64,000 nucleotides of DNA from Candidatus Moraniibacteriota bacterium (GTDB taxonomy: Bacteria > Patescibacteriota > Minisyncoccia > Moranbacterales > UBA11712), in NCBI GenBank assembly GCA_030679895.1, contig JAUXSN010000026.1:24661-88660 (forward strand), in the 5' to 3' direction. This document shows, piece by piece, positions 7,962-59,501 of this stretch (its first letter is position 1; each line of letters opens with the position of its first letter). The position numbers and the translations under genes are program-made. The notes beneath the pieces were generated by a model. That model ran no database searches, was not told where the DNA came from, and worked only from the letters and a program-made list of their open reading frames with translations.

Positions 7962-9074
7962 TTATTTAAACATTCCCGCCACCGCCTTTGTCACCCTTCT
8001 ATCCAGCACCTCTGGCACTATTTTATCGTACTTTGGCTTTTTTACCAAGCCGGCAATCGCTTCAGCCGCTTTTATCTTTATTTTGTCCGTGATAAATCGC
8101 GTTCTCGTGTCCAGCGCGCCTCGAAAAATTCCGGGGAAAACGAGGGCATTATTGATTTGATTGGGAAAATCGCTCCGACCCGTCGCAACTATCAACGCTC
8201 CTCCAGATTTGGCTTCTTTATAGGATATTTCGGGAACAGGATTGCTCATCGCGAAAACAACGGCATCTTTATTCATCTTTTGAATATCGTCGGCTTTCAA
8301 TAAATTCGGCGCTGAAACACCGATGAAAATATCCGCCCCGACCAGCGCGTTTCCTAAGTTGCCTTTGTATTTTTCCCGATTGGTTATTTGGGAGATTTTC
8401 TTTTTCTCTTCGTTTCCGCCGATATTTCGGCCATGATAAATCGCTCCTTTACTGTCAAAGGTAATAATATTTTTTGCCCCGTATTTCAAAAGCAGTTTCG
8501 TGATCGCAATCCCCGCCGCTCCCGCCCCCGAGATTACTATTTTTATATTTTTTATATCTTTTCCGACAACTTTTAGAGCGTTGATGAACCCGGCCAGTAC
8601 CGCAATAGCCGTTCCATGCTGATCATCATGAAAAACGGGAATGTCAAGTTCCTCGATCAAGCGCCGCTCTATCTCAAAGCATCTCGGCGCGGAAATATCC
8701 TCCAAATTTATCCCGCCGAATGTCGGTGCGATATATTTTACGGCTTTTATTATTTCTTCGGTATCTTGAGTCGCCAAAACAATCGGCACCGCGTCAACTC
8801 CGCTCAACTCTTTGAACAAAGCTACTTTCCCCTCCATCACCGGCAAGGCCGCTTCCGGACCCAGGTTTCCCAAACCCAAAACAGCGCTGCCATCCGAAAC
8901 GATCGCCACGCTGTTTTTTTTCCAGGTAAGGTCGTATACTTTCTTTTTATTTTTCGCAATGGCTCTTGAAAGTTCGGCCACACCGGGAGTATAGATTATC
9001 GGTAAATTACGCTTAGTTAATTTAAATTTACTTTTAATTTCAATTTTTGAGCCTAAAATTTTTTTCACTTCCAA
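7962..9074 (-). CDS. NAD(P)-dependent malic enzyme (short, MaeB N-terminal type)
   Basis: IYTPGVAELSRAIA, VVISGAGAAGIA Rossmann motif and FHDDQHGTA typical of malic enzymes; 370 aa. Confidence 0.8.
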   Translation of the reverse strand: MEVKKILGSKIEIKSKFKLTKRNLPIIYTPGVAELSRAIAKNKKKVYDLTWKKNSVAIVSDGSAVLGLGNLGPEAALPVMEGKVALFKELSGVDAVPIVLATQDTEEIIKAVKYIAPTFGGINLEDISAPRCFEIERRLIEELDIPVFHDDQHGTAIAVLAGFINALKVVGKDIKNIKIVISGAGAAGIAITKLLLKYGAKNIITFDSKGAIYHGRNIGGNEEKKKISQITNREKYKGNLGNALVGADIFIGVSAPNLLKADDIQKMNKDAVVFAMSNPVPEISYKEAKSGGALIVATGRSDFPNQINNALVFPGIFRGALDTRTRFITDKIKIKAAEAIAGLVKKPKYDKIVPEVLDRRVTKAVAGMFK

Positions 9075-9197
9075 TTTTCAATTTTCAATGATCAATTTTC
9101 AAACAATTTACAATGATCAATTTTCAAACAAATTCGCATTGTTAATTGAAAATTGAAAATTCATTGAAAATTGTAAATTGATAATTGAAAATTTTTA
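9071..9197. repeat. About 125 nt palindromic array of tandem AATTTTCAA units (left) and TTGAAAATT units (right) in the promoter region of the malic-enzyme gene
   Basis: ccaattttcaattttcaatgatcaattttcaaac...ttaattgaaaattgaaaattcattgaaaattg; the same unit arrays flank GC hairpins at 11127..11285 and 15756..15861. Confidence 0.7.
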
Positions 9198-9231
9198 ATA
9201 AAAATACTGAAAATAATCCTCAAATAGCACA

Positions 9232-10155
9232 TTAAGAAATTTGCAACTTCCTATACACGCTTCCCGCCGCAATCGCTCCTTCCGCCGCCGCGGTCACGAT
9301 TTGGCGTGTTTTGTTCGATCCGGTCGTGGCGTCCCCCGCCGCGTAAATATTGGCGACGTTCGTGCTTTGATCAGATTCGACAATTATGAATCCTTGCTCG
9401 TCCGATTCCACGCCAAGCTGCTTGACTAGCTCAATTCCCGGCTCGCTTCCGATTTCGATAAAGATACCTTGCACTTCCAGCTCATCCGCATTTTCATATT
9501 TTTTGTCGAGAATTATTTTCTCAACTGACTTCTCCCCTTTGATCTCTTTGATGTTAGTTTGATAAATGACTTTGACTTTCGCGTTTCCGGAAATTTTTTC
9601 AAGGTATGCCGGATCCACTTTCAGCCGCTCGCCCCGATAGATGATAAAAACACTGCCGGCGTATTCCGCCAGAAGCAACGCCGCCGAGGCCGCGCTGTTC
9701 CCTCCGCCGACGACAACCACCGTTTTGTCTTTGAAAAACGGCGCGTCGCATGTGGGGCAATAGGAGACTCCTTTTCCTCTAAATTCGGTTTCTCCCGGAA
9801 TTCGCAATTTTCGATATTCCATTCCGAGCGCCAAAATGATATATTTCGCTTTATAATTCTCGGCGTGGGTTGTGACGCTCCAGACATCGCCTTCCTTCAT
9901 GATATTCGACACAGAATCCATAATTATTTTCCCGCCAAGCTTTTCAACGTGTTCGCGCATTTTTTGGCCAAGTTCCAAGCCGGATATGGATTCCGTCCCC
10001 GGCCAATTTTCAACCAGATGAGCTTCGTTGGCCTGTCCGCCCGGCTCTTTGGCGATAACTATATGGTTGATCTTATAGCGCGAAGCATAAATCGAAGCCG
10101 CAAGCCCGGCCGGTCCGGCGCCGATGATGATGAGATCGTAAATGTTTGTATCCAT
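9232..10155 (-). CDS. trxB: Thioredoxin-disulfide reductase
   Basis: IIGAGPAG FAD motif, redox CPTCD, a second GGGNSA NADPH motif; 307 aa. Confidence 0.85.
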   Translation of the reverse strand: MDTNIYDLIIIGAGPAGLAASIYASRYKINHIVIAKEPGGQANEAHLVENWPGTESISGLELGQKMREHVEKLGGKIIMDSVSNIMKEGDVWSVTTHAENYKAKYIILALGMEYRKLRIPGETEFRGKGVSYCPTCDAPFFKDKTVVVVGGGNSAASAALLLAEYAGSVFIIYRGERLKVDPAYLEKISGNAKVKVIYQTNIKEIKGEKSVEKIILDKKYENADELEVQGIFIEIGSEPGIELVKQLGVESDEQGFIIVESDQSTNVANIYAAGDATTGSNKTRQIVTAAAEGAIAAGSVYRKLQIS

Positions 10156-10592: not shown

Positions 10593-11126
10593 TTATTTAT
10601 TAGATTTCTTACGATTTATAAAAATTAACGCGCCTCCGCCGATAAGGATAAGAGCGGCTATTATTGCGGGAAAATAATTTTTTTTGTTTCCGGCCGAAAC
10701 GGGGGCATCCACGCTATTCGGATTTTCCTTTGCGGTATTTTTGCTGATTTTGTCCGGATCAGGAAGTTGAGACGCGTCCGCCGCGTCGATTTCTTTTTCA
10801 AAATTATCAATGATCGGCTGATCACCGGCAATGAATTTATCCGCGAAAGCAATGGCTGGAACACTTCCCTTAAATTCGCTTTTGAAAACTTCTCCGAATT
10901 TCAGGAGCAAGCGGGTATTGAACGGATTGGAAAAATCAAGTTTTGTGATGTCATATTTATCATAAATCCCATTGGCTTTGAAATATTCGTCCACTTTCTG
11001 GCAATGCGGACACTGATCGCCATAAAAATAGTAAGCCTTCTTTTTCGAATCGCTTTGGGCTAGGGAAAAAATTGGAATTATAAAAAGAGCAAGTATAATA
11101 AATTTTAGTTTCATAAAAATTTTCAA
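10593..11126 (-). CDS. Secreted and membrane-anchored thioredoxin-fold (DsbA-like) thiol-disulfide oxidoreductase
   Basis: N-terminal signal peptide, a CPHC motif and a C-terminal TM helix; directly downstream of trxA, giving a trxB-trxA-dsb operon. Confidence 0.6.
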   Translation of the reverse strand: MKIFMKLKFIILALFIIPIFSLAQSDSKKKAYYFYGDQCPHCQKVDEYFKANGIYDKYDITKLDFSNPFNTRLLLKFGEVFKSEFKGSVPAIAFADKFIAGDQPIIDNFEKEIDAADASQLPDPDKISKNTAKENPNSVDAPVSAGNKKNYFPAIIAALILIGGGALIFINRKKSNK

Positions 11127-11285
11127 TTATCAATTTTTAATTTCTAAACAATTTTCAATGACTGAATGAATCAATTTTCAACGTTATGTTTAAGAAATTG
11201 GGAAATTTAAGCATTGTTTGTCACCGCCTTGGCGGGATCCCGCTTGGGCGGGAAAAATTGAAAATTAGAAATTGAAAATTGCGCG
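11127..11285. repeat. Composite repeat: AATTTTCAA unit arms around the GC double hairpin tgtcaccgccttggcgggatcccgcttgggcggg (11219..11252)
   Basis: The hairpin is the reverse complement (loops differ) of the one at 7286..7319 and is flanked by ttgaaaatt and aattttcaa units. Confidence 0.7.
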
Positions 11286-14405: not shown

Positions 14406-15755
14406 CTATTTTACCTTCCATTCCTCCGTCTGTCTCGGCAGAAGCTTTTCCGCCTGTTCCGGAAAACGCATAATTTCCTCGGAAATAAGCTCCATTCTGG
14501 CTCCCTGGGATCCTTTTATCAAAATCACGTCCCCTTCTTTCAAGGCTTTTTGAATAGGGATTTTAGCCTCGAACGAGTCATCGTAGCAGAAAACATTGTT
14601 TTTGTCAAGTCCCGACCGAATCGCTTCGTCGGCGATGAATTTCGCCTTGTCGCCAATCGCGAAAAGAATATCGGCAACTTGGGCCGCTTTTTTTCCCACT
14701 TCCCGATGTCCCGCTTCCGCTGCTTCGCCCAGCTCCAACATATTTCCCAGGGCCGCTATTTTTCGGCGCGCCTGAATTTTTTCCAGCACTTCAAGGGCGG
14801 CCAGCGTTGACTGCGGAGCGGCGTTATAGCTGTCCTCAATGATCATCGTGTTTTTGATCCCGTCTATAATATTCAATCGTCCCGCCGGTGCCTGAAAATC
14901 TTTGAGCGCTCCGGCAATCTCCAAAAGATTCATTCCAAAATGAATGCCGACCGCCGTGGCCGCCAGAGCCGAATATATTTGAGGCCTTCCGACAGATTGC
15001 GTCAGTCTTACCGGCATAGTTGTCCCTTCAAAGCTCAACTTGAAGCTGATGCCCCGAATCTTGCTGATATCGATACCCTTGCGATCTTTCACCGTTTCAT
15101 AGCCGAAGAAAACATCTGAAGCTCGAACGTCGGCTGCCTCTGAAAAGCCGAAAAACATTTTTTTTACCTTCACCGCTTCGGCCATTTTTCTCGCTTCCTC
15201 ATCGTCATAATTGAGAACTGCCAGTCCTTCTTTGTTTAAAAACCGGACTAAATAACTTTTTTCCCGGACAATTTGCTTTTTATCTTTGAAAAATTCGAGA
15301 TGGCTGATGCCAATGGCCGTAACCACGCCCACTTCCGGCTGGATGAAATCCACCAGATATTTGATATCTCCCGGCCGGTCCGCTCCCATTTCGAGAACCA
15401 TAATTTCGGGATATTTTTTCTTTGATGAAAAGAAAAGAATTCCGATTGACCGCAGAAACACTACGGTCCATTTTAAGAAGCTTCCGCCCCCGCCGGAAAG
15501 GCCGAGGATAGTAAGCGGCAGGCCGATTTCGTTGTTGTAATTCTTTTCGTTCTTGCGCACTCGATACTTTGAAGCCAGCACCGTATAAATCGCTTCTTTC
15601 GTTGAACTTTTTCCCACTGATCCCGTAACGCCGACAATGCGAGGCCTGAATTCACGCAAGGTTCTGGTTGCGAAATATTTTAATATTTTTTCCAATATTA
15701 TTATTCTTTTTGATTTCATGTTAATAATTTTCAATTTCCAATTTTCAATTTTCAA
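14406..15755 (-). CDS. murF: UDP-N-acetylmuramoyl-tripeptide--D-alanyl-D-alanine ligase
   Basis: Mur ligase central domain GVTGSVGKSSTKE; its position after ftsI in the dcw cluster; 449 aa. Confidence 0.8.
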   Translation of the reverse strand: MKIENWKLKIINMKSKRIIILEKILKYFATRTLREFRPRIVGVTGSVGKSSTKEAIYTVLASKYRVRKNEKNYNNEIGLPLTILGLSGGGGSFLKWTVVFLRSIGILFFSSKKKYPEIMVLEMGADRPGDIKYLVDFIQPEVGVVTAIGISHLEFFKDKKQIVREKSYLVRFLNKEGLAVLNYDDEEARKMAEAVKVKKMFFGFSEAADVRASDVFFGYETVKDRKGIDISKIRGISFKLSFEGTTMPVRLTQSVGRPQIYSALAATAVGIHFGMNLLEIAGALKDFQAPAGRLNIIDGIKNTMIIEDSYNAAPQSTLAALEVLEKIQARRKIAALGNMLELGEAAEAGHREVGKKAAQVADILFAIGDKAKFIADEAIRSGLDKNNVFCYDDSFEAKIPIQKALKEGDVILIKGSQGARMELISEEIMRFPEQAEKLLPRQTEEWKVK

Positions 15756-15861
15756 TCAATACTCCAATTCTCCAATTTTCAATGAAATAAAGTTTGAAAA
15801 TTTTGTCATTGTGACATTGAAAATTGTTTGGAAATTAGAAATTGATAATTGAAAATTAGAA
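15756..15861. repeat. AATTTTCAA/TTGAAAATT unit arrays around the short palindrome tgtcattgtgacat (possible empty site or solo terminal inverted repeat of the GC-hairpin element)
   Basis: ttaataattttcaatttccaattttcaattttcaatcaa...tttgaaaattttgtcattgtgacattgaaaattgtttggaaattagaaattgataattgaaaatt. Confidence 0.65.
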
Positions 15862-19120: not shown

Positions 19121-19129
19121 CGATTATTA

Positions 19130-19180
19130 TCCTAAAGTTCAACTTTCGGAACGCTTCCTAAAGTTGAACTTTAGGATTCA
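19130..19180. promoter_or_regulatory. Twin palindromes TCCTAAAGTTcAACTTTcGGA and TCCTAAAGTTgAACTTTAGGA between mraZ and rsmH
   Basis: Two tandem 21-bp inverted repeats of the TCCTAAAG-N5-CTTTAGGA type; the same design recurs at 55644..55691. Confidence 0.65.
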
Positions 19181-20087: not shown

Positions 20088-20900
20088 ATGCAATCGGCTG
20101 ATGGGGGTTTTTTCTTTGCCAGCCAATTGCAAAATTCAAGAATGCCAAAAAAGAAAACCAGCGATAAAGACAAAGATCAGGAACTCCAAAAAATAGCCGC
20201 GATTCGTGAAATGATCGCCAATGCCGAACGGACCATCCAATCCGCCCGCGCGATGCTAACGCAAATTGAAGGACCTTCCGCAAGAATGTCCCGCCGGCCG
20301 GCAGCAATCAATGGGTCAGAAGAAGAAGGGGAAATCGTCGAAGGAGTTTTTGACGGACAAGTTATGATGGGAACCGACGGGAAACAATATCCAGTCCCGG
20401 CTAACTATGCTTCAAAATCAAAGTTAGTCGAGGGGGATATGATGAAACTTACAATCACCCCGGACGGTTCTTTTATTTATAAGCAAATCGGACCCGCTGA
20501 AAGAAAAAGGCTGATCGGAGTTGTCAGCCAGGATGATTTAGGGAACTATGTCGTCATTGCTGATGGCAAGGCTTATCGCGTCCTTCTTGCTTCTGTCACC
20601 TATTTCAAAGCCGAACCGGGAGACGAGGTGACCCTCGTTACTCCCAAGGACAGTGATTCGATTTGGGGAGCCATTGAAAATCTCGTCAAAAAAGGATCCA
20701 TGGGCGGATTTGGAATGGAGTCGAGCTTCGGTGAAGAAAATCAAGAAAAAGATTCTTATGAAAAATCTGAAGGCGAAACCTCGTCGATTGATACGGGAAA
20801 ATTCGGCCGGGATGGAAAATTGGAAAGCGACCTCATAGACGAATGGACGCCGGAACTGGAAAAATTGCGGGAAGAAGCCAGCAAGCCGGTTCAAAGCTAA
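20088..20900 (+). CDS. Hypothetical protein with two repeated beta-rich segments and an acidic C-terminus (start may be the internal ATG at 20142, MPKKK...)
   Basis: 270-aa ORF; internal repeats KQYPVPANY...LVEGDMMKLTITPDG and KAYRVLLASV...AEPGDEVTLVTPKD; no recognised family. Confidence 0.5.
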   Translation: MQSADGGFFFASQLQNSRMPKKKTSDKDKDQELQKIAAIREMIANAERTIQSARAMLTQIEGPSARMSRRPAAINGSEEEGEIVEGVFDGQVMMGTDGKQYPVPANYASKSKLVEGDMMKLTITPDGSFIYKQIGPAERKRLIGVVSQDDLGNYVVIADGKAYRVLLASVTYFKAEPGDEVTLVTPKDSDSIWGAIENLVKKGSMGGFGMESSFGEENQEKDSYEKSEGETSSIDTGKFGRDGKLESDLIDEWTPELEKLREEASKPVQS

Positions 20901-20960
20901 GCTTTGAGGAATCCGCCGATGAGGCGGAGGAAAAGGTCGAACCTTGGTTTAAAGGTCGGA
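20901..20960 (+). ncRNA. Gene-3'-end structured element, variant copy of the family-2 element at 21647 and 23430
   Basis: gctttGAGGAATccgccgatgaggcggAGGAAAAggtcgaacctt shares the GAGGAAT...AGGAAAA core with the other two copies but has a different inner hairpin. Confidence 0.5.
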
Positions 20961-21012
20961 CTTTGAGCAAAGCAAAAGAAATCGAACTCTTTTAATTTAA
21001 AATATAAAAACT

Positions 21013-21645
21013 ATGGCAAAAACAAAAACCAATCAGACACAAAATTTGACTTCACGAGATATTCTTTTTGGCGCCATTAACGGTCTTATTTTTGGCGCGC
21101 TGCTGCCGGTTGTCCTCAAGAATATGAACATCGCAATTTCCACGAATATGGGTTTCGTTATTGCTATAGCTTTTACTGTTCTTGCGGCAATTGGGGTGGC
21201 TATCGGCTATTTTCTGTCAAAGTATATAAAAATCATTTTCCAGATCGCTAAATTCGGATGCGTGGGCGCGGCTAATTTTGCGGTGGATATCGGAATCCTG
21301 AATCTCTTGATTTTCCTGTCGGGGACAGCTGTCGGAGTCGCCTATATCGCTTTCAAAGTGATTTCTTTCACCTTTGCCGTCACCAATAGCTATACCTGGA
21401 ACAAAATATGGACATTCAAAAAAGTTGACACAAAAGAAACGGGAAAAGAATTTGGCCAGTTTATTACGATCAGCGTAATTGGACTCATCTTAAACGCTGC
21501 CGTCGCGGGTTTTCTCGTGATTGTCATCGGGCCATTGGGTGGAATAAAAGTCAAAACCTGGGCCAGCGTCTCCGCTGCCGTGGCTTCCGTCTGCGTCATG
21601 GCTTGGAATTTTGTCGGATACAAATTTTGGGTGTTTAAGAAATAG
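21013..21645 (+). CDS. GtrA-family membrane protein (polysaccharide synthesis or translocation accessory)
   Basis: FGCVGAANFAVDIGILNLL motif and four TM helices typical of GtrA, after an N-terminal extension. Confidence 0.6.
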   Translation: MAKTKTNQTQNLTSRDILFGAINGLIFGALLPVVLKNMNIAISTNMGFVIAIAFTVLAAIGVAIGYFLSKYIKIIFQIAKFGCVGAANFAVDIGILNLLIFLSGTAVGVAYIAFKVISFTFAVTNSYTWNKIWTFKKVDTKETGKEFGQFITISVIGLILNAAVAGFLVIVIGPLGGIKVKTWASVSAAVASVCVMAWNFVGYKFWVFKK

Positions 21646-21646
21646 T

Positions 21647-21718
21647 ATAAAGCTAACAAAGGTTCGACCTTGAGGAATTGCAAGTGATAGCGAGCAAGGA
21701 AAAGGTCGAACCTTGAAA
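21647..21718 (+). ncRNA. Family-2 structured element: outer stem aggttcgacctt/aaggtcgaacct around the conserved core GAGGAATTGCAAGTGATAGCGAGCAAGGAAAA, followed by a small terminator
   Basis: The core is near-identical to the copy at 23443..23471 while the stems differ but remain complementary (compensatory changes). Confidence 0.55.
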
Positions 21719-21720
21719 GA

Positions 21721-21745
21721 ATAAGCGCCAAACGCTTTTTTATTT
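21721..21745 (+). terminator. Rho-independent terminator
   Basis: aagcgccaaacgcttttttatttt. Confidence 0.6.
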
Positions 21746-21787
21746 TGCTTTTTTGATTTTTTATCTCAAACGCTATAATATACCTTT

Positions 21788-23428
21788 ATGAGCACAACTC
21801 TTTACCGCAAATACCGTCCCTCTGATTTTTCCCAAGTAATCGGGCAGAAGCACGTCGTTCAGACTCTTCAGAACTCCATCAAAAGCGGCCGGATCGGCCA
21901 GGCTTATCTTTTTGCTGGCCCGCGGGGAACGGGAAAAACTTCAATTGCGCGAATATTCGCTAAAACAATAAACTGCGCTGCTAACTTGGAAACTAAGTTT
22001 CCAAGTGGCGAACCTTGCCTCAAATGCGATTCTTGCAAAACTATTCTTGACGGCCGCTCGCTCGACATCATCGAAATTGACGCCGCTTCCCACACCGGCG
22101 TGGACAACATCCGTGAACTTCGGGAAACAGTGAAGCTTCCGCCCACCTCTCTCAAATATAAAGTCTATATCATCGACGAAGTCCATATGCTTTCCGGAGG
22201 CGCTTTTAATGCCCTTCTTAAAACTCTTGAGGAACCTCCGGAACACGTCGTTTTCATCCTGGCGACCACTGAAGTCCACAAAATTCCGGAAACGATTCTT
22301 TCCCGGGTGCAAAGATTCGATTTCACCCGCTTGACAGTCGAGGAAATTATAGAAAGACTAAAACAAATCGCGAAACTCGAAAAAGTGAGCGTCGAGCCGG
22401 AAGCTCTCGAAATAATCGCCTCTTCCTCCGAAGGCGGAATGCGAAACGCCGAAAGCCTTTTGGGACAAGTGATCGCCCTTGAAGACAAAAAGATTACGGC
22501 CAAGGAAGTCGAATTCATCCTGGGAACGGTTTCGGAAAAAGAAATAGCCGATTTTGTCGGTCAATTAGTGGCACATAATTTTCCGGCTGTCTTTTCGAGA
22601 ATCGCCGACCTGCGGGAATCCGGCATCGATTTCAAAAATTTCGGCAAGTCGCTGCTCAATTATCTTCGACAGATGCTGGTCTTGAAGATAAATCCGGATC
22701 TTGGAAAAAAATTGTCATACGAACTAACCAAAGAGAGGCTGGGGCAGATCCAAAAACAAATTACCGAAATAGAAATTGATGCAATATTGGATATGATCAA
22801 TATTCTTCAGGAAAATACCGAGCGTTTCAAAAACAGCCAGATTCCCCAGCTGTATCTCGAAGCAAGTATTGCCAGCCTCACCGTAAATTCTGGCAAGTCT
22901 AGGCGGGCTGAAGCGGCTGTCAGCGAAGTTATTGATGCCTCCCCTGCTCCACCAATCGCAACTCAAATTAATAATAATAAAAAAGAAACAGCCGAGATCA
23001 AACAAGCTGCGGAAAATAAATCTTTTAAAACATCGGCCGAGCCTAAAAAAGAATTAGCTGAAGCGGTTAAAAAAGAAATCAGCGGCGACGACCTTGAACT
23101 CGTCCGCTCCAGATGGCTGGATATCATAGATTCGCTCAAAAGCTACAACCATTCCCTGTCGTCTGTCCTTAAAATGGCCAGCCCGTCTCTTATCGAAGGA
23201 AACAAACTGATTGTCAAAACAAAGTATGATTTCTACAAAGACAAAATCACCGAAACCCAAAATCGATTGACAATCGAAGACGCGATTGATAAGATAACAG
23301 GCGTTAATTTGAAAATAAAAACGCTCACCGAAAAAGAATTCCAAGCCGAATATCCGGACTTCAAAGAGAAAAAAAGCCTCCTTCAGGAAGCCGTGGATAT
23401 CTTCGGAGGGAAGATCGTAAAAGAATAG
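21788..23428 (+). CDS. dnaX: DNA polymerase III subunit gamma/tau
   Basis: GPRGTGKTS Walker A, Zn module CLKCDSC, DEVHML Walker B, SRVQRF sensor; 546 aa. Confidence 0.9.
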   Translation: MSTTLYRKYRPSDFSQVIGQKHVVQTLQNSIKSGRIGQAYLFAGPRGTGKTSIARIFAKTINCAANLETKFPSGEPCLKCDSCKTILDGRSLDIIEIDAASHTGVDNIRELRETVKLPPTSLKYKVYIIDEVHMLSGGAFNALLKTLEEPPEHVVFILATTEVHKIPETILSRVQRFDFTRLTVEEIIERLKQIAKLEKVSVEPEALEIIASSSEGGMRNAESLLGQVIALEDKKITAKEVEFILGTVSEKEIADFVGQLVAHNFPAVFSRIADLRESGIDFKNFGKSLLNYLRQMLVLKINPDLGKKLSYELTKERLGQIQKQITEIEIDAILDMINILQENTERFKNSQIPQLYLEASIASLTVNSGKSRRAEAAVSEVIDASPAPPIATQINNNKKETAEIKQAAENKSFKTSAEPKKELAEAVKKEISGDDLELVRSRWLDIIDSLKSYNHSLSSVLKMASPSLIEGNKLIVKTKYDFYKDKITETQNRLTIEDAIDKITGVNLKIKTLTEKEFQAEYPDFKEKKSLLQEAVDIFGGKIVKE

Positions 23429-23429
23429 A

Positions 23430-23485
23430 AAGCTAAGCTTTGAGGAATTGCGAGTAAAGCGAGCAAGGAAAAAGCTTAGCTTTGG
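23430..23485 (+). ncRNA. Family-2 structured element: stem agctaagcttt/aaagcttagct around the core GAGGAATTGCGAGTAAAGCGAGCAAGGAAAA
   Basis: Directly after the dnaX stop and before tRNA-Gln; the core is conserved with the copy at 21671..21700. Confidence 0.55.
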
Positions 23486-23498
23486 AAAAAATTAATTT

Positions 23499-23570
23499 TG
23501 GGGCGTCGCCAAGTGGTAAGGCAGGGGCCTTTGAAGCCCCCATTCGTGGGTTCGAATCCTACCGCCCCAG
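23499..23570 (+). tRNA. tRNA-Gln (anticodon TTG)
   Basis: Hand-folded tggggcgtcgccaagtggtaaggcaggggcctttgaagcccccattcgtgggttcgaatcctaccgccccag; anticodon loop cTTTGaa, T-loop TTCGAAT, 7-bp acceptor. Confidence 0.75.
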
Positions 23571-23677
23571 CTGATAGATTAAGGCTTAAAAAAAGCCTTT
23601 TTATGCTATCGTTTTCCATTTGACAAACAAATTCCAATGTGCTATGATAACGAATCTTAAATACCCATTCATTTGAT

Positions 23678-24688
23678 ATGAACATCCGGAAAATTCTCAT
23701 ACCGAATAAGCCTCACCTTGACCCGATAGCGGCCATATATTTGTTGCGTAAACACGGAAAGGAGAAATTTCCCGGAGTTGAGCGTGCCGAAATAGTTTTT
23801 TGGGAACATGCAAAAAATCCCAGCGAGAAAGAGGCAAGCGATTTTGAAAAAGAGGGCGGCTTGATGATTGACGTTGGCGGAGGCTTGTTCGACCATCACG
23901 GCGGAAAAAACAGCTCCGAAACCTCGACATCATTGGTGGCTTCCCATCTGGGCATAGAAAATAATCCCGAGGTGTCGGCGCTGCTCGGATACATCAGGGA
24001 AGATGACCTCGAGGGCCTTCACAACCGCTACGGCGATCTTGCCTACATCGTGAAATGCATGCACAAGCAGAATGTGCCTTCGGCAAAAGTCATTGAGTAT
24101 ATAATGCTCGCGATTGATTTCTTGCAGCTTAATCAGGACGAATGGCACCATGTGGTGAAAAAGGAATACGAAGAAAAATGCAAAGTAGTCATGGTGAAGC
24201 GCCCCAAAAGAAAAATAAAGCTTGGGGTGATCGAATCGGACAATGTGCAAGTCGGCAATTATGGAATTTCCGTCGATAATCTTTCCATTCTGATTCAGAA
24301 ACGTTCGACAGGCCATATTGTGATCCTGACCAATAAACATCACCGAATAAATTTGAGGGAAATTGTTGGCGCTATCAGAAAAAGAGAACTTGAATTGGCG
24401 GATTATGGAAAACCGATTGATCCGAAAAAGCTGCAGTTCGAAGGAAAAAACTCTCTTGTTCCCCAATGGTTTTTTCACCGGTCTCTCAACGCGTTCATGA
24501 ACGGATCGGACGCGCTGAATAAAGCGGATCCGACCAAAGTTCCGCTGGAAGAAATCATGAATTTGGTCTGGTATGGAATTACCGCGGAAATTTCCGAATA
24601 CTGCGATTGCGACAAGGGCGGAGAAATGTGTCCTTTCGCGCCATACGGATTTAGCAAATGCGAAGAGAGAAAAAACAGCCCAGCGTAA
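23678..24688 (+). CDS. Hypothetical protein with a DHH-phosphoesterase-like motif (IDVGGGLFDHHGG) and a C-terminal Cys cluster (CDCDKGGEMC...C)
   Basis: 336 aa; N-terminal HLDPIAA loosely resembles DHH motif I; family assignment is tentative. Confidence 0.5.
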   Translation: MNIRKILIPNKPHLDPIAAIYLLRKHGKEKFPGVERAEIVFWEHAKNPSEKEASDFEKEGGLMIDVGGGLFDHHGGKNSSETSTSLVASHLGIENNPEVSALLGYIREDDLEGLHNRYGDLAYIVKCMHKQNVPSAKVIEYIMLAIDFLQLNQDEWHHVVKKEYEEKCKVVMVKRPKRKIKLGVIESDNVQVGNYGISVDNLSILIQKRSTGHIVILTNKHHRINLREIVGAIRKRELELADYGKPIDPKKLQFEGKNSLVPQWFFHRSLNAFMNGSDALNKADPTKVPLEEIMNLVWYGITAEISEYCDCDKGGEMCPFAPYGFSKCEERKNSPA

Positions 24689-24790
24689 CAGTCCTATGAG
24701 GATGATATTTTCACCATGGGATTGCGACGCTATCATCGGTCGCAATAAAAATTCCGCAGCACATTCCAATACTGTATAAAGGGAGAAGAG

Positions 24791-25246
24791 ATGGCACAGA
24801 AAGGTGTTGTTCCGAGAGAAGTTCAGCGGCAAACGGTCTGGGGGCCAGAAGCGGCCTTCATCGGTATTGACAAGAACGCGGTTCTGAAGACTTATATCCC
24901 CGAAGGCAAAAAAAAGTCTCTCCAATACCTGGAATGCATGAAGGCTGTGGAGGGAGGATTCATTCCCCTCTACGTCTTCGGCGAAGGGGATCTGGAAATG
25001 ATCCGCGGGAAAAAGGTTCCCGCCGAGGTCGAGCTCCGGACCAAGCGCGAGCGCGGCCAGAAAATCCACTACCTGCGGGCAGAGATCCTGCCGCCGGATG
25101 CTGCCCGTCCGCAAGTCAAGCTTTATGTCGGTAGCGGAAAAGACGAGAACATTGTCCTGCTGGATAATTACCCGCGGCTGAAAGGCGCCGAGGAACTCCG
25201 GCGGTTCATTATCGGCTTCATCTCCACCACCAAAAAGGCGGCCTGA
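24791..25246 (+). CDS. Hypothetical protein (151 aa) in a GC-rich patch
   Basis: Good RBS (aagggagaagag) before the ATG and a terminator after; composition is clearly GC-richer than the flanks. Confidence 0.5.
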   Translation: MAQKGVVPREVQRQTVWGPEAAFIGIDKNAVLKTYIPEGKKKSLQYLECMKAVEGGFIPLYVFGEGDLEMIRGKKVPAEVELRTKRERGQKIHYLRAEILPPDAARPQVKLYVGSGKDENIVLLDNYPRLKGAEELRRFIIGFISTTKKAA

Positions 25247-25332
25247 AATCAGCGCCTCCAAGGAGGAAAAAAAATGGGCGGATGTGGATTTGTCTCTCAT
25301 TGAGACGCTCCCATCCGCCCTACCCCCCACTA

Positions 25333-25360
25333 CCCAAAACGCACTTTCGTGCGGTTTTTT
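25333..25360 (+). terminator. Rho-independent terminator
   Basis: aacgcactttcgtgcggttttttt. Confidence 0.6.
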
Positions 25361-25440
25361 TATTTTATACAAACTAATTAAAAATATTGCATTCCCGCTC
25401 CCCCATTGCCAAAAGACTCGTTGAAAGGTAAGGTTACCCT

Positions 25441-35183: not shown

Positions 35184-38135
35184 TCACTTCCTTAAAATTT
35201 CTTTAAGAAATTTTGCTGTATAACTTTCCTTGTGATATTTCACCACTTCCTCCGGCGGGCCGGTGACGACGACGCGTCCGCCAAGGTCACCGCCTTCGGG
35301 ACCAAGATCAATTATCCAATCCGCCGTTTTGATGACATCCATATTATGTTCGATCACGATCACGGTATTTCCCGCTTCGACCAAACGGTTGAGAACGCCC
35401 AACAACTTCTTGATATCTTCAAAATGCAGTCCGGTGGTCGGCTCGTCCAATATGTACAGGGTATCACCCGACGAGCGGCGCGACAATTCCGTGGCCAGTT
35501 TGATCCTCTGCGCTTCCCCGCCGGAAAGAGTGGTCGCCGATTGGCCGAGATTGATATACCCAAGTCCCACGTCTTCGAGAACCTTGAGCGCTTCATGAAT
35601 CGCCGGGAAATTTTCAAAAAAATCTTTGGCTTCGCTCACCGTCATCGCCAAAACATCGGCAATGGTTTTTCCTTTATATTTCACTTGCAAGGTTTCGCTG
35701 TTATAGCGCTTTCCGGAACATACGTCGCAAGGAAGATAAACGTCCGGCATAAATTGCATTTCGATCTTGAGAAATCCTTCGCCGGCGCAATTGTCGCAAC
35801 GCCCGCCATTCACATTGAAAGAAAATCTTCCCGGGCCATAACCGCGTTGTTTGGCTTCTCTCGTCATGGCAAACAAAGTCCGGATCGGCGTGAAAAGTCC
35901 GGTGTAAGTCGCCGGATTGGACCGCGGCGTGCGACCGATCGGAGACTGGTCGATGTGGATCACTTTGTCGACATATTGCGTCCCAAGAATTTCTTTGTGC
36001 CGCCCCGGCCGCTCGAGTGAGCGCATAATTTTCGACGACAAACCTTTCCCCAGTATATCCTCAACCAGTGTCGATTTTCCGCTACCGCTGACACCCGTCA
36101 CACAAGTCAATGTTTTCAGGGGAAATTCGACTGTTATACTCTTGAGATTGTGTTCAGTGGCACCTTTCACAGTGAGCCACTTTTTGTTTTTCACCGGACG
36201 GCGGAATTTGGGAATTTCTATTTCAGCATCACCTCGCAAATATTTTCCCGTGATCGATTTTTTTTCTTTTTCGATATCCTTCACCGAACCTTCGGCCACG
36301 ATTTCTCCGCCAAGTTTTCCCGCTCCCGGACCGATATCAACCAGATGATCGGCCGCCCGGATCGTTTCTTCGTCGTGTTCAATGACAATGACCGTGTTCC
36401 CGATATCTCTCAATTTGAGCAATGTTTCAAGTAATTTCGCATTATCTCGCGCGTGAAGCCCTACTGACGGCTCGTCGAGGATATACAAAACTCCGACTAA
36501 TTGCGATCCAATCTGGGAAGCGAGGCGGATTCTCTGCGTTTCGCCACCGGCCAAAGTATTGGCGGATCTGCCCAAGGTCAAATACCCAAGACCCACATCC
36601 TCCAAAAACTTCAAACGATTTTTCACCTCTTTGAGAATTCTGTCGGCGATTATTTTTTCCCGCTCGTTTAATTTTATGCCTTCAAAAAATTTCAGCGTTT
36701 CATTCACGCTCACGGTTGAAATTTCGGATACATTTTTTCCGCCAACAGTCACAAGCAACGCTTCGGGTTTGTATCTCGATCCTCGACAAGCGCCGCAGGG
36801 ACTTTGGGACATATATTTTTCAATGCCTTCCCGCACCGCTTCCGAATCGGTCTTGAAATATCGGTCGCGCAAAAATCCGACCACGCCCTTCCATTCGATC
36901 TCCCATTTCCAGATCGATCCTGTTTTTGAATGGAATCTCACCGGTATCTCGTCGGCCGGATCATCGCCATTCACAAGCAGTTCTTGCTGGCGGTCCGTGA
37001 GATTCCGGAAACGAACATTGTCCGGAATGGAATAAAAATTCGTCACCGAGCGCAAAATAGTCCCGTAATAATTATTGCGCTTATACGTCCAGGGAATAAT
37101 CGCCCCTTCGGCGATGGTCTTCGTTTTGTCAGGAATTACCATATCGGGATCAATTTCTTTTTTTGTTCCCAGTCCTTCACATTCGGGACACGCTCCCTGC
37201 GGACTATTGAAAGAAAACAGCCGCGGCTCCAGTTCCGGAAAAACAGCATCTTCGTGATCAGGACAGGCCATGTTTTGATTATATATCTGCTCGGATTTTC
37301 CATTGCGCACTTTCACAAATCCTTTCGACAGCTTTAGCGCGCTTTCTGCACCTTCAAATATCCGGCTTATATTTTTATCATTCATTTCGATCGTATCGAT
37401 CAAAATATCAATACTGTGCTTTTTGTATCTGGCTAAAATTTTGCCTTTTTTGGCTTCTTCTTCGAGATTTACTTTTTTGCCATCAATATATGCTTCCGAA
37501 AATCCACGTTTCCACATTTCCGCAAGCAAGGTCGCGTAATCACCCTTTCTCTCGCGTACGACTGGTGAAAGAATTTCAATTTTCAAACTTTTTTCTTTTT
37601 TGTCATCCCCGTGAAAACGGGGATCCAGTTTTGCCTGGTCACTGGAACTTTTCTGGATTCCCACGGAGTTTATCCTCGTGAAAACGGGGACGGGAATGAC
37701 AAGATTGGACAAATCAAATATTCTATCAACTACTTCATCAATCGAAAGTTTTGAAATCTCTTTTTCGCACACCGGACAATGCGTCACGCCGATCTTGGCA
37801 TATAAAAGCCTCAAATAGTCATGAATTTCAGTCACCGTTCCCACCGTCGAGCGCGGATTGTGCGACGCCGCTTTCTGGTCAATCGAAATCGCCGGGCTCA
37901 AGCCTTCGATCGAATCCACATCCGGTTTTTCCATCTGTCCCAAAAACTGCCGGGCATAACTCGAAAGACTCTCGAGATACCGCCTCTGCCCCTCGGCAAA
38001 AATTGTATCAAAAGCCAGCGTCGATTTCCCCGACCCGCTGATGCCCGTGAAAACAATAAACTTCCCCCGAGGTAGTTCAAGGTTTATATTCTTCAAATTA
38101 TGCTCTCGCGCGCCGCGAATTATTATTTTATCCAT
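35184..38135 (-). CDS. uvrA: Excinuclease ABC subunit A
   Basis: Two ABC ATPase modules and Zn fingers; 983 aa, about 35 aa longer than typical because of an in-frame repeat-element insertion (separate entry). Confidence 0.95.
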   Translation of the reverse strand: MDKIIIRGAREHNLKNINLELPRGKFIVFTGISGSGKSTLAFDTIFAEGQRRYLESLSSYARQFLGQMEKPDVDSIEGLSPAISIDQKAASHNPRSTVGTVTEIHDYLRLLYAKIGVTHCPVCEKEISKLSIDEVVDRIFDLSNLVIPVPVFTRINSVGIQKSSSDQAKLDPRFHGDDKKEKSLKIEILSPVVRERKGDYATLLAEMWKRGFSEAYIDGKKVNLEEEAKKGKILARYKKHSIDILIDTIEMNDKNISRIFEGAESALKLSKGFVKVRNGKSEQIYNQNMACPDHEDAVFPELEPRLFSFNSPQGACPECEGLGTKKEIDPDMVIPDKTKTIAEGAIIPWTYKRNNYYGTILRSVTNFYSIPDNVRFRNLTDRQQELLVNGDDPADEIPVRFHSKTGSIWKWEIEWKGVVGFLRDRYFKTDSEAVREGIEKYMSQSPCGACRGSRYKPEALLVTVGGKNVSEISTVSVNETLKFFEGIKLNEREKIIADRILKEVKNRLKFLEDVGLGYLTLGRSANTLAGGETQRIRLASQIGSQLVGVLYILDEPSVGLHARDNAKLLETLLKLRDIGNTVIVIEHDEETIRAADHLVDIGPGAGKLGGEIVAEGSVKDIEKEKKSITGKYLRGDAEIEIPKFRRPVKNKKWLTVKGATEHNLKSITVEFPLKTLTCVTGVSGSGKSTLVEDILGKGLSSKIMRSLERPGRHKEILGTQYVDKVIHIDQSPIGRTPRSNPATYTGLFTPIRTLFAMTREAKQRGYGPGRFSFNVNGGRCDNCAGEGFLKIEMQFMPDVYLPCDVCSGKRYNSETLQVKYKGKTIADVLAMTVSEAKDFFENFPAIHEALKVLEDVGLGYINLGQSATTLSGGEAQRIKLATELSRRSSGDTLYILDEPTTGLHFEDIKKLLGVLNRLVEAGNTVIVIEHNMDVIKTADWIIDLGPEGGDLGGRVVVTGPPEEVVKYHKESYTAKFLKEILRK
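37601..37701. mobile_element. GC-hairpin palindromic MITE-like element, copy B, in frame inside uvrA (encodes VIPVPVFTRINSVGIQKSSSDQAKLDPRFHGDDKK)
   Basis: tgtcatccccgtgaaaacggggatccag...ctggattcccacgg...gtgaaaacggggacgggaatgaca; the uvrA ORF runs through it; the segment is absent from E. coli UvrA between ...VDNVLSQP and EGKRLMLLAPI... Confidence 0.75.
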
Positions 38136-38142
38136 GGTCTTT

Positions 38143-38188
38143 GCTAAAGCTTAGCCTTAGCGAGCCGCCGCTAAGGCTAAGCTTTAGC
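38143..38188. promoter_or_regulatory. Perfect 20-bp inverted repeat (6-nt loop) 8 nt upstream of the uvrA start codon
   Basis: gctaaagcttagccttagcg-agccgc-cgctaaggctaagctttagc; candidate operator or RBS-sequestering hairpin. Confidence 0.6.
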
Positions 38189-55638: not shown

Positions 55639-55643
55639 GTTTT

Positions 55644-55691
55644 TCCTAAAGTTTAGCTTTAGGAAGCGTTCCTAAAGCTAAACTTTAGGAA
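55644..55691. promoter_or_regulatory. Twin palindromes TCCTAAAGtttagCTTTAGGA and TCCTAAAGctaaaCTTTAGGA directly upstream of the ftsQ-like start (the AGGA of the proximal arm sits at SD distance)
   Basis: Same TCCTAAAG-N5-CTTTAGGA x2 design as at 19130..19180. Confidence 0.65.
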
Positions 55692-58167: not shown

Positions 58168-59501
58168 TAATTTATTTCTTTATTAATAATTTTCAAGTTC
58201 CCCGGCATCCATTTTCGCAAAACTTCCGGAATCACAACACTGCCATCGGATTGCTGTCCGTTTTCGAGAATAGCTATTAGCGTCCGACCGATAGCAAAGG
58301 CTGTCGCGTCGTTCATATGCACGAATTCAGTCTTTCCGTCTTTTCTTTTTACTTTCGTATTCAAACGACGGGATTGATAATCATTCATGAGATCGGACGT
58401 ATTTGTTTCGCGATATCTATTTTGTCCCGGCATCCATGTTTCAATGTCAATTTGCCGATAATCCGGACCGCCCATATCGCCCGTGCAGATTGCAACAACT
58501 TGATAAGATAATTTCAAGGACTGCATCAGATATTCCTGGATCGCAACAATAAAATCCTGTTCTTTCAAAGAATTTTCCGGAAGAGAAAATGATTCCATCT
58601 CTAGCTTGTCGAATTGATGAACCCGTAAAATTCCTTTTGTGTCTTTTCCATACGATCCCGCCTCTCGCCTGAAGGCTGTTGAAAAACCAATAAACCTCAA
58701 AGGCATATCCGCTTCTTTCAAAGTCTCATCCATATACATGGCTCCCAAAGTATGTTCAGCGCTACCAACCAAATATAAATCGTCAGCCGGAGTATGATAT
58801 CTTTCTTCGCGCGGTTCGAGTCTCGCCATTCTTTGCATTGACTCGGGCTTGATCAGCACCGGAGGAACAACCGGAATAAACGGCCGATCACTGACATCCA
58901 GATTATTTTCTTTGATAATCTCTTTTAATGTATTTTCATTGGTCAAAACGGAAAGAGCATGTTGAATAAGAGCAAACTCCAAAAGCACTGCTTCGCCTTT
59001 CAAATAACTGAACCTGCTCCCACTAACCTTTACAGCTCGTTCGATGTCGATGATATCCAAATTTTTGCCAAGTTCCCAATGCTCTTTGGGCTGAAAGTCG
59101 AACTTTGGAATTTCTCCCCACTTTCGAATTACTTTATTCCCTGCTTCATCCGGACCAATCGGCGTATCAGGAGAAATAACATTTGGTACGATATAAAGAA
59201 TTTCTTTATATTCTTTTTCTATTTTATCAAATTCAGGATCAAGTTTATCCAGATCTTTTTTAATCTTCTTTCCTTCTGCAATTATTTTATCCTTATCTCC
59301 CGCATTTTTCATTTCGTCGTTCAAGTTATTTTTTTTCTCTTTCAGTTCCCCAATTTCAACAATTAGTTTTCTTCTCTTCTCGTCCAATTCCAAAAGCCGG
59401 TCCACGTCGCATTTGATATTGCGGAGTTCGCAATTTTTCTTCACGGTTTCCTTGTTTTCGCGGATGTATTTGATATCGAGCATATTATTTAGAAGAAACA
59501 T
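58167..59501 (-). CDS. serS: Seryl-tRNA synthetase
   Basis: N-terminal coiled-coil arm plus class II motifs; 444 aa. Confidence 0.9.
   Translation of the reverse strand: MFLLNNMLDIKYIRENKETVKKNCELRNIKCDVDRLLELDEKRRKLIVEIGELKEKKNNLNDEMKNAGDKDKIIAEGKKIKKDLDKLDPEFDKIEKEYKEILYIVPNVISPDTPIGPDEAGNKVIRKWGEIPKFDFQPKEHWELGKNLDIIDIERAVKVSGSRFSYLKGEAVLLEFALIQHALSVLTNENTLKEIIKENNLDVSDRPFIPVVPPVLIKPESMQRMARLEPREERYHTPADDLYLVGSAEHTLGAMYMDETLKEADMPLRFIGFSTAFRREAGSYGKDTKGILRVHQFDKLEMESFSLPENSLKEQDFIVAIQEYLMQSLKLSYQVVAICTGDMGGPDYRQIDIETWMPGQNRYRETNTSDLMNDYQSRRLNTKVKRKDGKTEFVHMNDATAFAIGRTLIAILENGQQSDGSVVIPEVLRKWMPGNLKIINKEIN

Follow-up and report, generated by a model that had tools for sequence, protein, structure and literature searches.

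Nested palindromes at the 3' ends of three consecutive genes

The window (the whole stretch of 64,000 nucleotides of Candidatus Moraniibacteriota DNA that was analysed) contains three full copies, A, B and C, of a nested palindrome, all of them near the stop codon of an ORF on the same strand. Copy A overlaps the stop codon of an ORF of 270 amino acids, copy B begins 14 nt past the stop codon of a gtrA-like gene, and copy C begins immediately 3' of the dnaX stop codon and ends 15 nt before a tRNA-Gln gene (23499-23571). The layout common to all three is a 13-nt arm, the motif GAGGAAT, a variable inner hairpin, the motif AGGAAAA and a second 13-nt arm. The full copies, the related short forms and the neighbouring features are as follows.

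19129..19176, unstranded: short form without the core, with arms AAAGTTCAACTTT and AAAGTTGAACTTT and TCCT/AGGA extensions, filling the spacer between mraZ and rsmH (mraW)
20893..20945, + strand: copy A, a full element whose hybrid arms do not match each other (cmsearch 51.5 bits, E = 2.7e-12)
20893-20905, + strand: left arm of copy A, AAAGCTAAGCTTT, which takes in the TAA stop codon of the ORF at 20088-20900
Core of copy A, + strand: GAGGAAT-CCGCCGATGAGGCGG-AGGAAAA
20933-20945, + strand: right arm of copy A, AAGGTCGAACCTT
20952..20964, + strand: single arm AAGGTCGGACTTT, just 3' of copy A
21649..21656, + strand: half-arm remnant AAAGCTAA of the other arm type, abutting copy B on its upstream side
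21659..21714, + strand: copy B, a full element composed of AAGGTTCGACCTT, GAGGAAT, TGCAAGTGATAGCGAGCA, AGGAAAA and GGTCGAACCTT (76.4 bits with the covariance model)
21723..21745, + strand: canonical intrinsic terminator AAGCGCCAAACGCTT with a T tract, downstream of copy B and separate from the element
23429..23483, + strand: copy C, a full element composed of AAAGCTAAGCTTT, GAGGAAT, TGCGAGTAAAGCGAGCA, AGGAAAA and AGCTTAGCTTT (74.7 bits with the covariance model)
38143..38188, unstranded: short form, a perfect hairpin of 20 bp made from arms AAAGCTTAGCCTT and AAGGCTAAGCTTT
55643..55690, unstranded: short form with arms AAAGTTTAGCTTT and AAAGCTAAACTTT and TTCCT/AGGAA extensions, filling the spacer between a Mur-ligase gene and ftsQ, both on the - strand

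A sequence-only reading of this DNA had reported three such elements after consecutive genes; they are present on the + strand with the sequences that it quoted, and its coordinates are off by 1-3 nt. As it had described, the outer arms of copy B (AAGGTTCGACCTT and AAGGTCGAACCTT) are perfectly complementary, as are those of copy C (AAAGCTAAGCTTT and AAAGCTTAGCTTT), the arm sequences of the two copies being unlike each other, and copy A has a different inner hairpin (CCGCC-GATGA-GGCGG) and mixes the two stem types: its left arm is of the C type, its right arm is of the B type, and these non-complementary arms form no outer stem. The pattern GAGGAATN{8,30}AGGAAAA has three matches in the window, which are copies A, B and C, versus 0.08 expected, and three or more matches occur in none of 100 shuffles. 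The RNA fold z-scores of copies B and C are -5.0 and -4.6, respectively. The elements are not intrinsic terminators, in agreement with the earlier argument: what comes after the right arm is GGAAAAA, GAAAGAA or GGTTTAA and not a U tract, and a terminator scan passes over the elements but picks out a separate terminator downstream of copy B (21723-21745), which is kept in the relatives L031, L035 and L036.

Arms and short forms

The repeat unit is the 13-nt near-palindromic arm AARGYYNRRCYTT, which is observed 14 times in the window versus 0.52 times expected; 13 of the 14 arms are located in six intergenic loci, and 13 of the 14 belong to inverted pairs or clusters. An arm at 59094-59106 is likely a chance match within the coding sequence of SerRS rather than a copy. 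The palindromes containing CTAAAG/CTTTAG words that had been thought to be related to the elements (19129-19176, 38143-38188 and 55643-55690) are indeed arm pairs without the core, and the second of them stops 8 nt upstream of the uvrA start codon (ATG at 38135, - strand). Beyond the window, two degenerate forms are found in the relative L031: a short form upstream of a gene, at a place that is free of one in the window, and a counterpart (AAAGGGAACTTTGG) of the single arm at 20952..20964, in the same place. The density of arms varies between loci from 0 to 12 per 10 kb.

Distribution of the family and covariation of its stems

Further copies, for which the sequence-only reading had proposed a covariance-model search, exist: such searches found 24 distinct full copies, together with short forms, in several Candidatus Moranbacteria assemblies. 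Chance matches in coding sequence aside, genome and metagenome scans (of collections that do not include the genome of the window, the metagenome matches being mostly redundant copies) recovered the core only in Moranbacteria/Patescibacteria assemblies, and no copies were found in viral contigs. Full elements are approximately 53-62 bp long, and the arms occur as inverted pairs, spaced 26-43 bp apart, that either stand alone (short form) or flank the core (full form). A search of Rfam 15 identified only tRNAs at the gathering threshold and nothing that overlaps the elements up to E = 10, and no description of the element was found in the literature searched or in Rfam.

Among the 24 distinct copies, 93.2% of the cells in paired columns of the alignment can pair (96.8% in the arm helix), 15 of the 21 pairs change on both sides, and none of 500 shuffles matches this; meanwhile GAGGAAU and AGGAAAA stay conserved and unpaired in the nested hairpin. 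The earlier description of a conserved core enclosed by co-varying stems holds. Wobble pairs on the sense strand are G.U in 23 cases versus A.C in 6, but approximately 12 of the 23 G.U pairs descend from one inherited T.G of a single arm subfamily. The co-directional intergenic full copies are in the sense orientation with respect to the upstream gene in 12 of 13 cases, starting no more than about 14 nt from its stop codon, whereas copies inside genes occur in both orientations.

Presence, absence and exchange of modules between relatives

Three relatives are syntenic with the window, with DnaX proteins that are 86% (L031), 88% (L035) and 87% (L036) identical to that of the window. The 3' end of dnaX is empty of the element in all three, and L031 has none of the three full copies. 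The mraZ-rsmH spacer, which is 66 nt long in the window, is 1 nt long in L031, which lacks that palindrome. At the gtrA 3' site, L035 and L036 have a family member as the window does, but its arm types and inner hairpin are not those of copy B; L031 has another hairpin there. In each of the three genomes with a family member at this site, half-arm remnants of the alternative type immediately precede the element, and in L035 and L036 the arrangement of remnant and element is the reciprocal of that in the window. The inner hairpin of copy A recurs in another assembly (L022, 282-336) with other arms, which match each other. Arm types and inner hairpins combine independently and are swapped as modules, and copies are gained, lost or replaced between close relatives. 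No clear target-site duplication was seen where filled and empty sites were compared (dnaX-tRNA and mraZ-rsmH, window versus L031 or L036). The mraZ-rsmH junction has a possible ATCG...ATCG.

Copies inside protein-coding genes

Of the 24 full copies that are distinct, 12 or more are in frame within protein-coding genes, including positions in loops of housekeeping proteins. Sense copies are found in the genes for MiaA, a MiaB-like protein, ArgS, an ELP3-like radical-SAM protein and a membrane protein, and antisense copies in those for the CCA-adding enzyme, ArgS and XseA. At least three reading frames of the element, two sense and one antisense, are open, and the encoded peptide has approximately 19-21 residues. 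Among ArgS orthologues that are 70-80% identical to the query, some have the element in the same loop in the sense orientation, some have it there in the antisense orientation and some lack it. In an AlphaFold2 model of ArgS (mean pLDDT 85), the one host protein for which compatibility of the insert with the fold was modelled, residues 68-78 of the insert have pLDDT below 50 and are predicted to form coil between a helix (54-65) and a strand (82-88). No orthologues of the host proteins were found among the other loci of the comparison set, and a search with a concatenated peptide of 44 amino acids gave no candidates for further host proteins.

A dispersed and probably mobile palindrome

The elements are best explained as a dispersed palindrome, probably mobile and resembling REPINs and Rickettsia palindromic elements (RPEs), in a clade of Candidatus Moranbacteria (Patescibacteria/CPR); mobility is inferred from the comparisons between relatives. 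According to the proposed mechanism, a non-autonomous hairpin-forming element would spread within genomes, either through mobilisation in trans by an enzyme or through copying and exchange between copies via the conserved joints, and only copies that keep the hairpin and the conserved unpaired motifs would go on spreading. This would account for a conserved loop within stems that change on both sides. The copies in the window would be insertions at gene ends that the host tolerates, with at most a secondary role as hairpins at mRNA 3' ends. Pfam scans of 38 ORFs in the window, whose 64 kb are a small sample of a genome, identified only housekeeping and uncharacterised families and no transposase or mobilising enzyme, and no transposase family is present in the gene tables of L031-L036, which cover a small fraction of any genome. 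The sense orientation of 12 of 13 co-directional intergenic copies, compared with the two orientations of copies inside genes, points to some constraint at the level of RNA or translation; a purely selfish model does not predict such a constraint, and so it counts against this explanation. Sense copies at gene 3' ends may therefore have a secondary role at the RNA level. Other points against the explanation are that no target-site duplication is evident, that viral contigs gave no copies and that the occupation of the gtrA 3' site could reflect a need for a hairpin.

The sequence-only reading favoured a structured RNA element of the 3' UTR, and of this the nested hairpin stands but the tie to these particular genes does not: the element is dispersed, with copies in frame inside genes and an empty dnaX site in three relatives. 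A cis-regulatory RNA specific to these genes is rejected on the same grounds, together with the empty site after the 270-aa ORF in L031 and the existence of antisense copies. Furthermore, mobile REPINs are known to change in a matched manner on the two sides of their hairpin (PMC3116915), and thus such changes are not by themselves proof of a regulatory RNA.

A rival explanation, which we regard as unlikely, is that the elements are a structural RNA module that benefits the host at gene 3' ends by protecting mRNA 3' ends, insulating cistrons or providing a site for processing or protein binding, with the repeat family as the source from which modules are recruited. The sense transcript would fold into a long hairpin whose internal loop is rich in purines, for example an RNase III-type site or a G.A-rich loop. 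The stable folds of the mRNA strand with stems that change on both sides, the excess of G.U over A.C on the sense strand and the position of copy B upstream of a separate terminator, hence inside the transcript, are all in its favour, as is the gtrA 3' site, where the presence of a family member in three of four close genomes and of another hairpin in the fourth suggests that a hairpin could be needed. The orientation and proximity to stop codons of 12 of 13 co-directional copies also agree with it, but where genes are only 1-5 nt apart, as in this genome, an element inserted between two of them inevitably follows a stop codon directly. The module is further disfavoured by the vacant dnaX and 270-aa ORF sites, by the arms of copy A that cannot pair, by the origin of about half of the G.U pairs in one arm subfamily, by the absence of an Rfam match and, in the antisense in-frame copies of ArgS, XseA and the CCA-adding enzyme, by the retention of the structure where the mRNA carries the complement.

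It is very unlikely that the 13-nt arms are operators or architectural sites in DNA for a dimeric protein such as a regulator, a nucleoid protein or gyrase. Gyrase binding has been reported for enterobacterial REP/BIME elements; every arm is itself near-palindromic, and arm pairs occupy the spacers directly before the start codons of rsmH, ftsQ and uvrA. However, arm sequences vary by site while each pair stays self-complementary, which fits a hairpin better than the operator of one protein; the pairs are absent at the orthologous positions in L031, many copies are within coding sequence, and no candidate binding protein was identified. Finally, mimicry of Shine-Dalgarno sequences, in which the anti-Shine-Dalgarno sequence would pair with GAGGAA, AAGGAAAA and the GGAAAAA of the 3' flank so that ribosomes are parked or reloaded for a downstream gene, is extremely improbable and is rejected: the motifs do resemble Shine-Dalgarno sequences and the distance from the end of the element to the next start codon is 7-14 nt for several copies (those before rsmH and ftsQ in the window and others in L004, L009 and L005), but the window genes lack Shine-Dalgarno motifs and the organism appears not to use them (GGAG, GAGG, AGGA or AAGG at -16 to -7 in 7 of 49 genes versus 10.5% at random positions, two of the seven being those preceded by short forms), and there is no coupled ORF after copy B, which is followed by a terminator and promoter, or after copy C, which is followed by a tRNA.

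Comparison with known repeats

The family is a new example of an already known type of repeat. REPINs and the REP/BIME elements of Pseudomonas and enterobacteria are likewise short near-palindromic units, mostly in inverted pairs that fold with their spacer into one hairpin; they are likewise strongly over-represented, mostly between genes and often right after stop codons, and occur as subfamilies and mosaic combinations. In REPINs, both sides of the hairpin often carry changes (PMC3116915). The arms in Moranbacteria differ in being 13 nt long, beginning with AAAG or AAGG and ending with CTTT or CCTT, whereas REP palindromes are headed by a conserved GTAG or CGTC, neither of which occurs in the alignments; they flank an asymmetric conserved core (GAGGAAT, hairpin, AGGAAAA); no gene for a RAYT (Y1 HUH transposase) was seen among the sequences examined; and, whereas REPINs are extragenic, many copies here are in frame inside genes, in a CPR bacterium.

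RPEs are palindromic repeats of Rickettsia, a host with a reduced genome, that are found between genes and in frame in unrelated housekeeping genes, where the encoded peptide is placed where the fold tolerates it, and no transposase is known for them (PMC10969869). The element shares with RPEs the in-frame palindromic inserts in unrelated proteins, the predicted fold-compatible position (in the ArgS model), the lack of a known transposase and the reduced genome of the host; RPEs are approximately 150 bp long and specific to Rickettsia, versus 53-62 bp here, and the two are likened by description and not by sequence.

Miniature inverted-repeat elements (MITEs) such as Correia/NEMIS, ERIC and RUP are also non-autonomous, have terminal inverted repeats (here the 13-nt arms), differ in insertion between strains, and can be co-transcribed and form RNA hairpins, but the element in Moranbacteria is much shorter, its arms are themselves palindromes, and no clear target-site duplication was seen. 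We know of no parent insertion sequence that shares the ends of the element, and no autonomous insertion sequence with the same ends was seen in approximately 320 kb of sequence. The RNase III hairpins of phage T7 type lie between cistrons, are long, have a conserved asymmetric internal loop and leave a 3' hairpin on the upstream mRNA. A long hairpin between genes with a conserved asymmetric internal loop, which would leave a 3' hairpin on the mRNA upstream, resembles these by functional analogy only, and the element differs in being located also inside ORFs and in antisense.

Significance

A further proposal, speculative and rather improbable, is that the GAGGAAU/AGGAAAA loops are the recognition site of a dedicated protein, either a domesticated HUH-type enzyme or an RNA-binding or processing factor. 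Purine-purine pairs could form between 5'-GAGGAA and 5'-GGAA as predicted from the sequence, in a register that is not canonical for a kink-turn, in which a bulge of three nucleotides precedes tandem sheared G.A pairs and an L7Ae-type protein is bound. If a single-copy HUH-type enzyme maintained the repeats in the way that RAYTs maintain REPINs, it would be the first case of this kind among CPR bacteria. With an RNA factor, sense copies after stop codons would define mRNA 3' ends or cistron boundaries in ultra-compact genomes that are poor in Shine-Dalgarno sequences.

For annotation and for the discovery of RNA motifs, the family is a warning that covariation in a repeated palindrome can mimic a regulatory RNA, and the element could be used as a marker of strain-level variation and for tracing the enzyme responsible for its spread. 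The genomes of CPR bacteria are very small and densely packed with genes, so that the persistence of selfish repeats in them is unexpected. Nevertheless, a nested palindrome of approximately 55 bp is present at several copies per 10 kb in some Moranbacteria. Its copies extend into essential genes (those for ArgS, MiaA and a CCA-adding enzyme), in which it makes protein loops vary in length, and within CPR bacteria it parallels REPINs and the Rickettsia palindromic elements.

Nested palindromes at gene ends

The three full copies of the nested palindrome in the window each consist of two 13-nt arms around a core of GAGGAAT, an inner hairpin and AGGAAAA:

Copy A, 20893-20945, + strand, AAAGCTAAGCTTT-GAGGAAT-CCGCCGATGAGGCGG-AGGAAAA-GGTCGAACCTT
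Copy B, 21659-21714, + strand, AAGGTTCGACCTT-GAGGAAT-TGCAAGTGATAGCGAGCA-AGGAAAA-GGTCGAACCTT
Copy C, 23429-23483, + strand, AAAGCTAAGCTTT-GAGGAAT-TGCGAGTAAAGCGAGCA-AGGAAAA-AGCTTAGCTTT

The pattern GAGGAATN{8,30}AGGAAAA has exactly three matches in 64 kb (0.08 expected). Copies B and C fold as long hairpins with z = -5.0 and -4.6, respectively; copy A combines a C-type left arm with a B-type right arm, and therefore folds as three small hairpins and not as one long hairpin. The genes 5' of the copies encode a 270-aa protein that has no match in a Pfam search (A; the stop codon falls within the left arm), a GtrA-family protein (B; 14 nt from stop to element) and DnaX (C; directly after the stop). 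After copy B come a distinct canonical terminator and a promoter-like TATAAT near the dnaX ATG; copy C is followed by tRNA-Gln. The sequence-only reading had thus described the three elements accurately.

Every 13-nt arm is a near-palindrome by itself (e.g., AAAGCT-N-AGCTTT). The window contains 14 matches to the degenerate arm pattern AARGYYNRRCYTT (0.52 expected), 13 of which fall in six intergenic loci, namely copies A, B and C and three short forms:

19129-19176, arm pair without core, filling the mraZ-rsmH spacer
55643-55690, arm pair without core, taking up the spacer that separates a Mur-ligase gene from ftsQ
38143-38188, arm pair without core, forming a 20-bp hairpin that lies 8 nt before the uvrA start

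A covariance model trained on the full copies also recovers the short forms; thus, by arm pattern and model alike, the palindromes of uvrA and the division genes that had been noted as related belong to this family. One further arm match (AAAGTCGAACTTT, 59094-59106) lies within the seryl-tRNA synthetase gene, where it encodes PKFDF; it is probably a coincidence of the native coding sequence and not an insertion.

Range and covariation of the family

When 185,579 species genomes were scanned for the exact core, six loci came from Candidatus Moranbacteria/Patescibacteria assemblies; the two other matches, one in a Peptostreptococcus genome and one in a Cellvibrionaceae MAG, are read as chance. 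Additional copies from a metagenome scan were mostly redundant, and the protein that best matches DnaX carries a Candidatus Moranbacteria annotation. A covariance-model search of the collected loci yielded 24 distinct full copies, in which 93.2% of cells hold standard pairs and 15 of 21 pairs are changed on both sides. The observed values are not reached in any of 500 shuffles, and pairing falls to 45-55% when the partner is shifted by one column. The inner hairpins are highly diverse (UUGCGGCA/UGCCGCAA, UGACGGG/CCCGUCA, UCCCGCAC/GUGCGGGA, CCCUCCCUU/AAGGGAGGG) while GAGGAAU and AGGAAAA are near-invariant; the conserved core with co-varying stems described from the three copies is borne out. 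An Rfam search gave no match to the element.

Comparison with syntenic relatives

In the relative locus L031 (PMCQ01000006), DnaX is 86% identical and gene order from mraZ to uvrA is as in the window. No arms at all were found by the arm pattern in its 21.6 kb: 5 nt separate the dnaX stop from tRNA-Gln, only a degenerate single arm is left in the spacer after the 270-aa ORF, and the mraZ-rsmH distance is 1 nt versus 66 nt in the window. In place of copy B, the gtrA 3' region of L031 has an unrelated perfect hairpin (9885-9905, ATTCCCGCGAAAGCGGGAAT), which may be a member of another palindromic repeat family. Because the dnaX 3' end is also empty in two closer relatives, L035 (DnaX 88%) and L036 (87%), copy C is a recent gain. 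The element is not tied to these genes.

The gtrA 3' site is filled by a family member in both L035 and L036, with C-type arms versus B-type in the window and with different inner hairpins (TTTCCCGACGAGTAGTCGGGGAA and TTGCGAGCGACGCGAGCAA, respectively), and in each genome the remnant of half an arm, of the other type, persists just upstream. The inner hairpin of copy A recurs in locus L022 with a third arm type. The differing arms and inner hairpins at the gtrA 3' site indicate that arm type and inner hairpin combine independently of each other. Compensated point substitutions cannot yield such mixing of modules at so short an evolutionary distance; cassette exchange between copies or repeated insertion at one site can.

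Other features of these loci also differ. Upstream of gtrA in L036 (1-130), TACGAA-containing direct and inverted repeats replace the 270-aa ORF region. Downstream of tRNA-Gln, the window has overlapping opposite-strand ORFs of 336 aa (23678-24688, +; no match in Pfam) and 480 aa (23930-25372, -); this position is a variable spot, because relatives have different genes there (a 231-aa gene in L031, a deaminase in L035).

Copies inside protein genes

Several copies lie in frame within long conserved ORFs:

Sense, MiaA, encoding KKLSFEELRTKVSKEKSLAL
Sense, MiaB-like methylthiotransferase
Sense, ArgS, encoding EKLGFEEPREAGREKPSFG
Sense, ELP3-like radical-SAM protein, in a different reading frame
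Sense, small membrane protein
Antisense, CCA-adding enzyme
Antisense, XseA
Antisense, ArgS, at two loop positions

Among 75 ArgS orthologues (P0121-P0195, 68-99% identical to the query), the N-terminal loop contains the sense element, the antisense element (QSSAF...EIPQSQAF), other palindrome-like peptides or nothing, and a second loop contains KLSFEELRANSEQGKSLAL in two orthologues. For the ArgS that carries the sense copy, an AlphaFold2 model (mean pLDDT 85) puts the insert within a low-confidence coil between helix 54-65 and strand 82-88. Because every in-gene copy keeps the reading frame, the inserts are evidently translated and not removed.

ArgS alignment columns of about 120-155 and 281-318 hold other palindrome-like peptides too (FRRPTSK...DVGRLQ, SGPTARPQRDADGPL, IRGLTSSALEVRPRI, LRSRLSGRSNPVEEGKDGIAVVTTLPRDDK), and several small palindromic insert families seem to share these two loop hot spots. 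A Moranbacteria contig rich in the element (L033) carries a 346-aa reverse-transcriptase gene (RVT_1, 1104-2144) that could be part of a diversity-generating retroelement or retron.

Possible constraint at the RNA level

Twelve of the 13 full copies between co-directional genes have the sense orientation relative to the gene upstream and begin no more than about 14 nt after its stop codon; the sole exception is the L004 copy. Copies inside genes divide about 7 to 5 by orientation. Closeness to stop codons is partly trivial because empty spacers span only 1-5 nt, but short spacers do not account for the sense-orientation bias. The bias argues for some RNA-level constraint; it is possible, although not likely, that sense copies act secondarily as 3' hairpins or as sites of processing. 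The wobble asymmetry (23 G.U versus 6 A.C) is weak evidence of RNA-level constraint because about 12 of the G.U pairs trace to one T.G inherited in one arm subfamily, which occurs also in copies antisense to the host gene. Useful Shine-Dalgarno sites are ruled out as an explanation of the purine motifs, since the motif precedes 7 of 49 window genes, a background rate (10.5% at random positions).

The leaders of the 49 ORF starts in the window are A/T-rich, and for several of these starts (among them those of dnaX, 21788, and of two ORFs, 41188 and 42400) a TATAAT only 9-20 nt upstream suggests a leader that is very short or absent. A/T-rich units (AATTTTCAATT / TTGAAAATTGAAAATT; families D1-D6) form arrays in three intergenic regions that separate minus-strand genes (9054-9225, 11099-11280 and 15707-15857), apparently a recurring upstream motif distinct from the palindrome.

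Relationship to known palindromic elements

The best-supported reading is that the element is a dispersed nested palindrome, probably mobile or copy-exchanging. Propagation that required both a hairpin shape and specific unpaired motifs would fit a conserved loop with co-varying stems; the pattern does not establish a regulatory RNA. The architecture of the element recalls that of REPINs, in which small palindromes are paired as inverted doublets, fold into a hairpin and vary on both sides of the stem (PMC3116915); its presence in frame within housekeeping genes recalls the Rickettsia palindromic elements (PMC10969869). Because it lacks the REP-defining GTAG/CGTC head and is not restricted to extragenic space, it belongs to neither of these families but to a new one of similar general character. 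Neither a RAYT nor any other transposase turned up in the small sequence sample covered, and the literature searched gave no account of comparable elements from CPR bacteria. The phenomenon itself is known; the family is a well-supported case of it from a new lineage, of moderate relevance to CPR genome biology and a caution for RNA-motif discovery.
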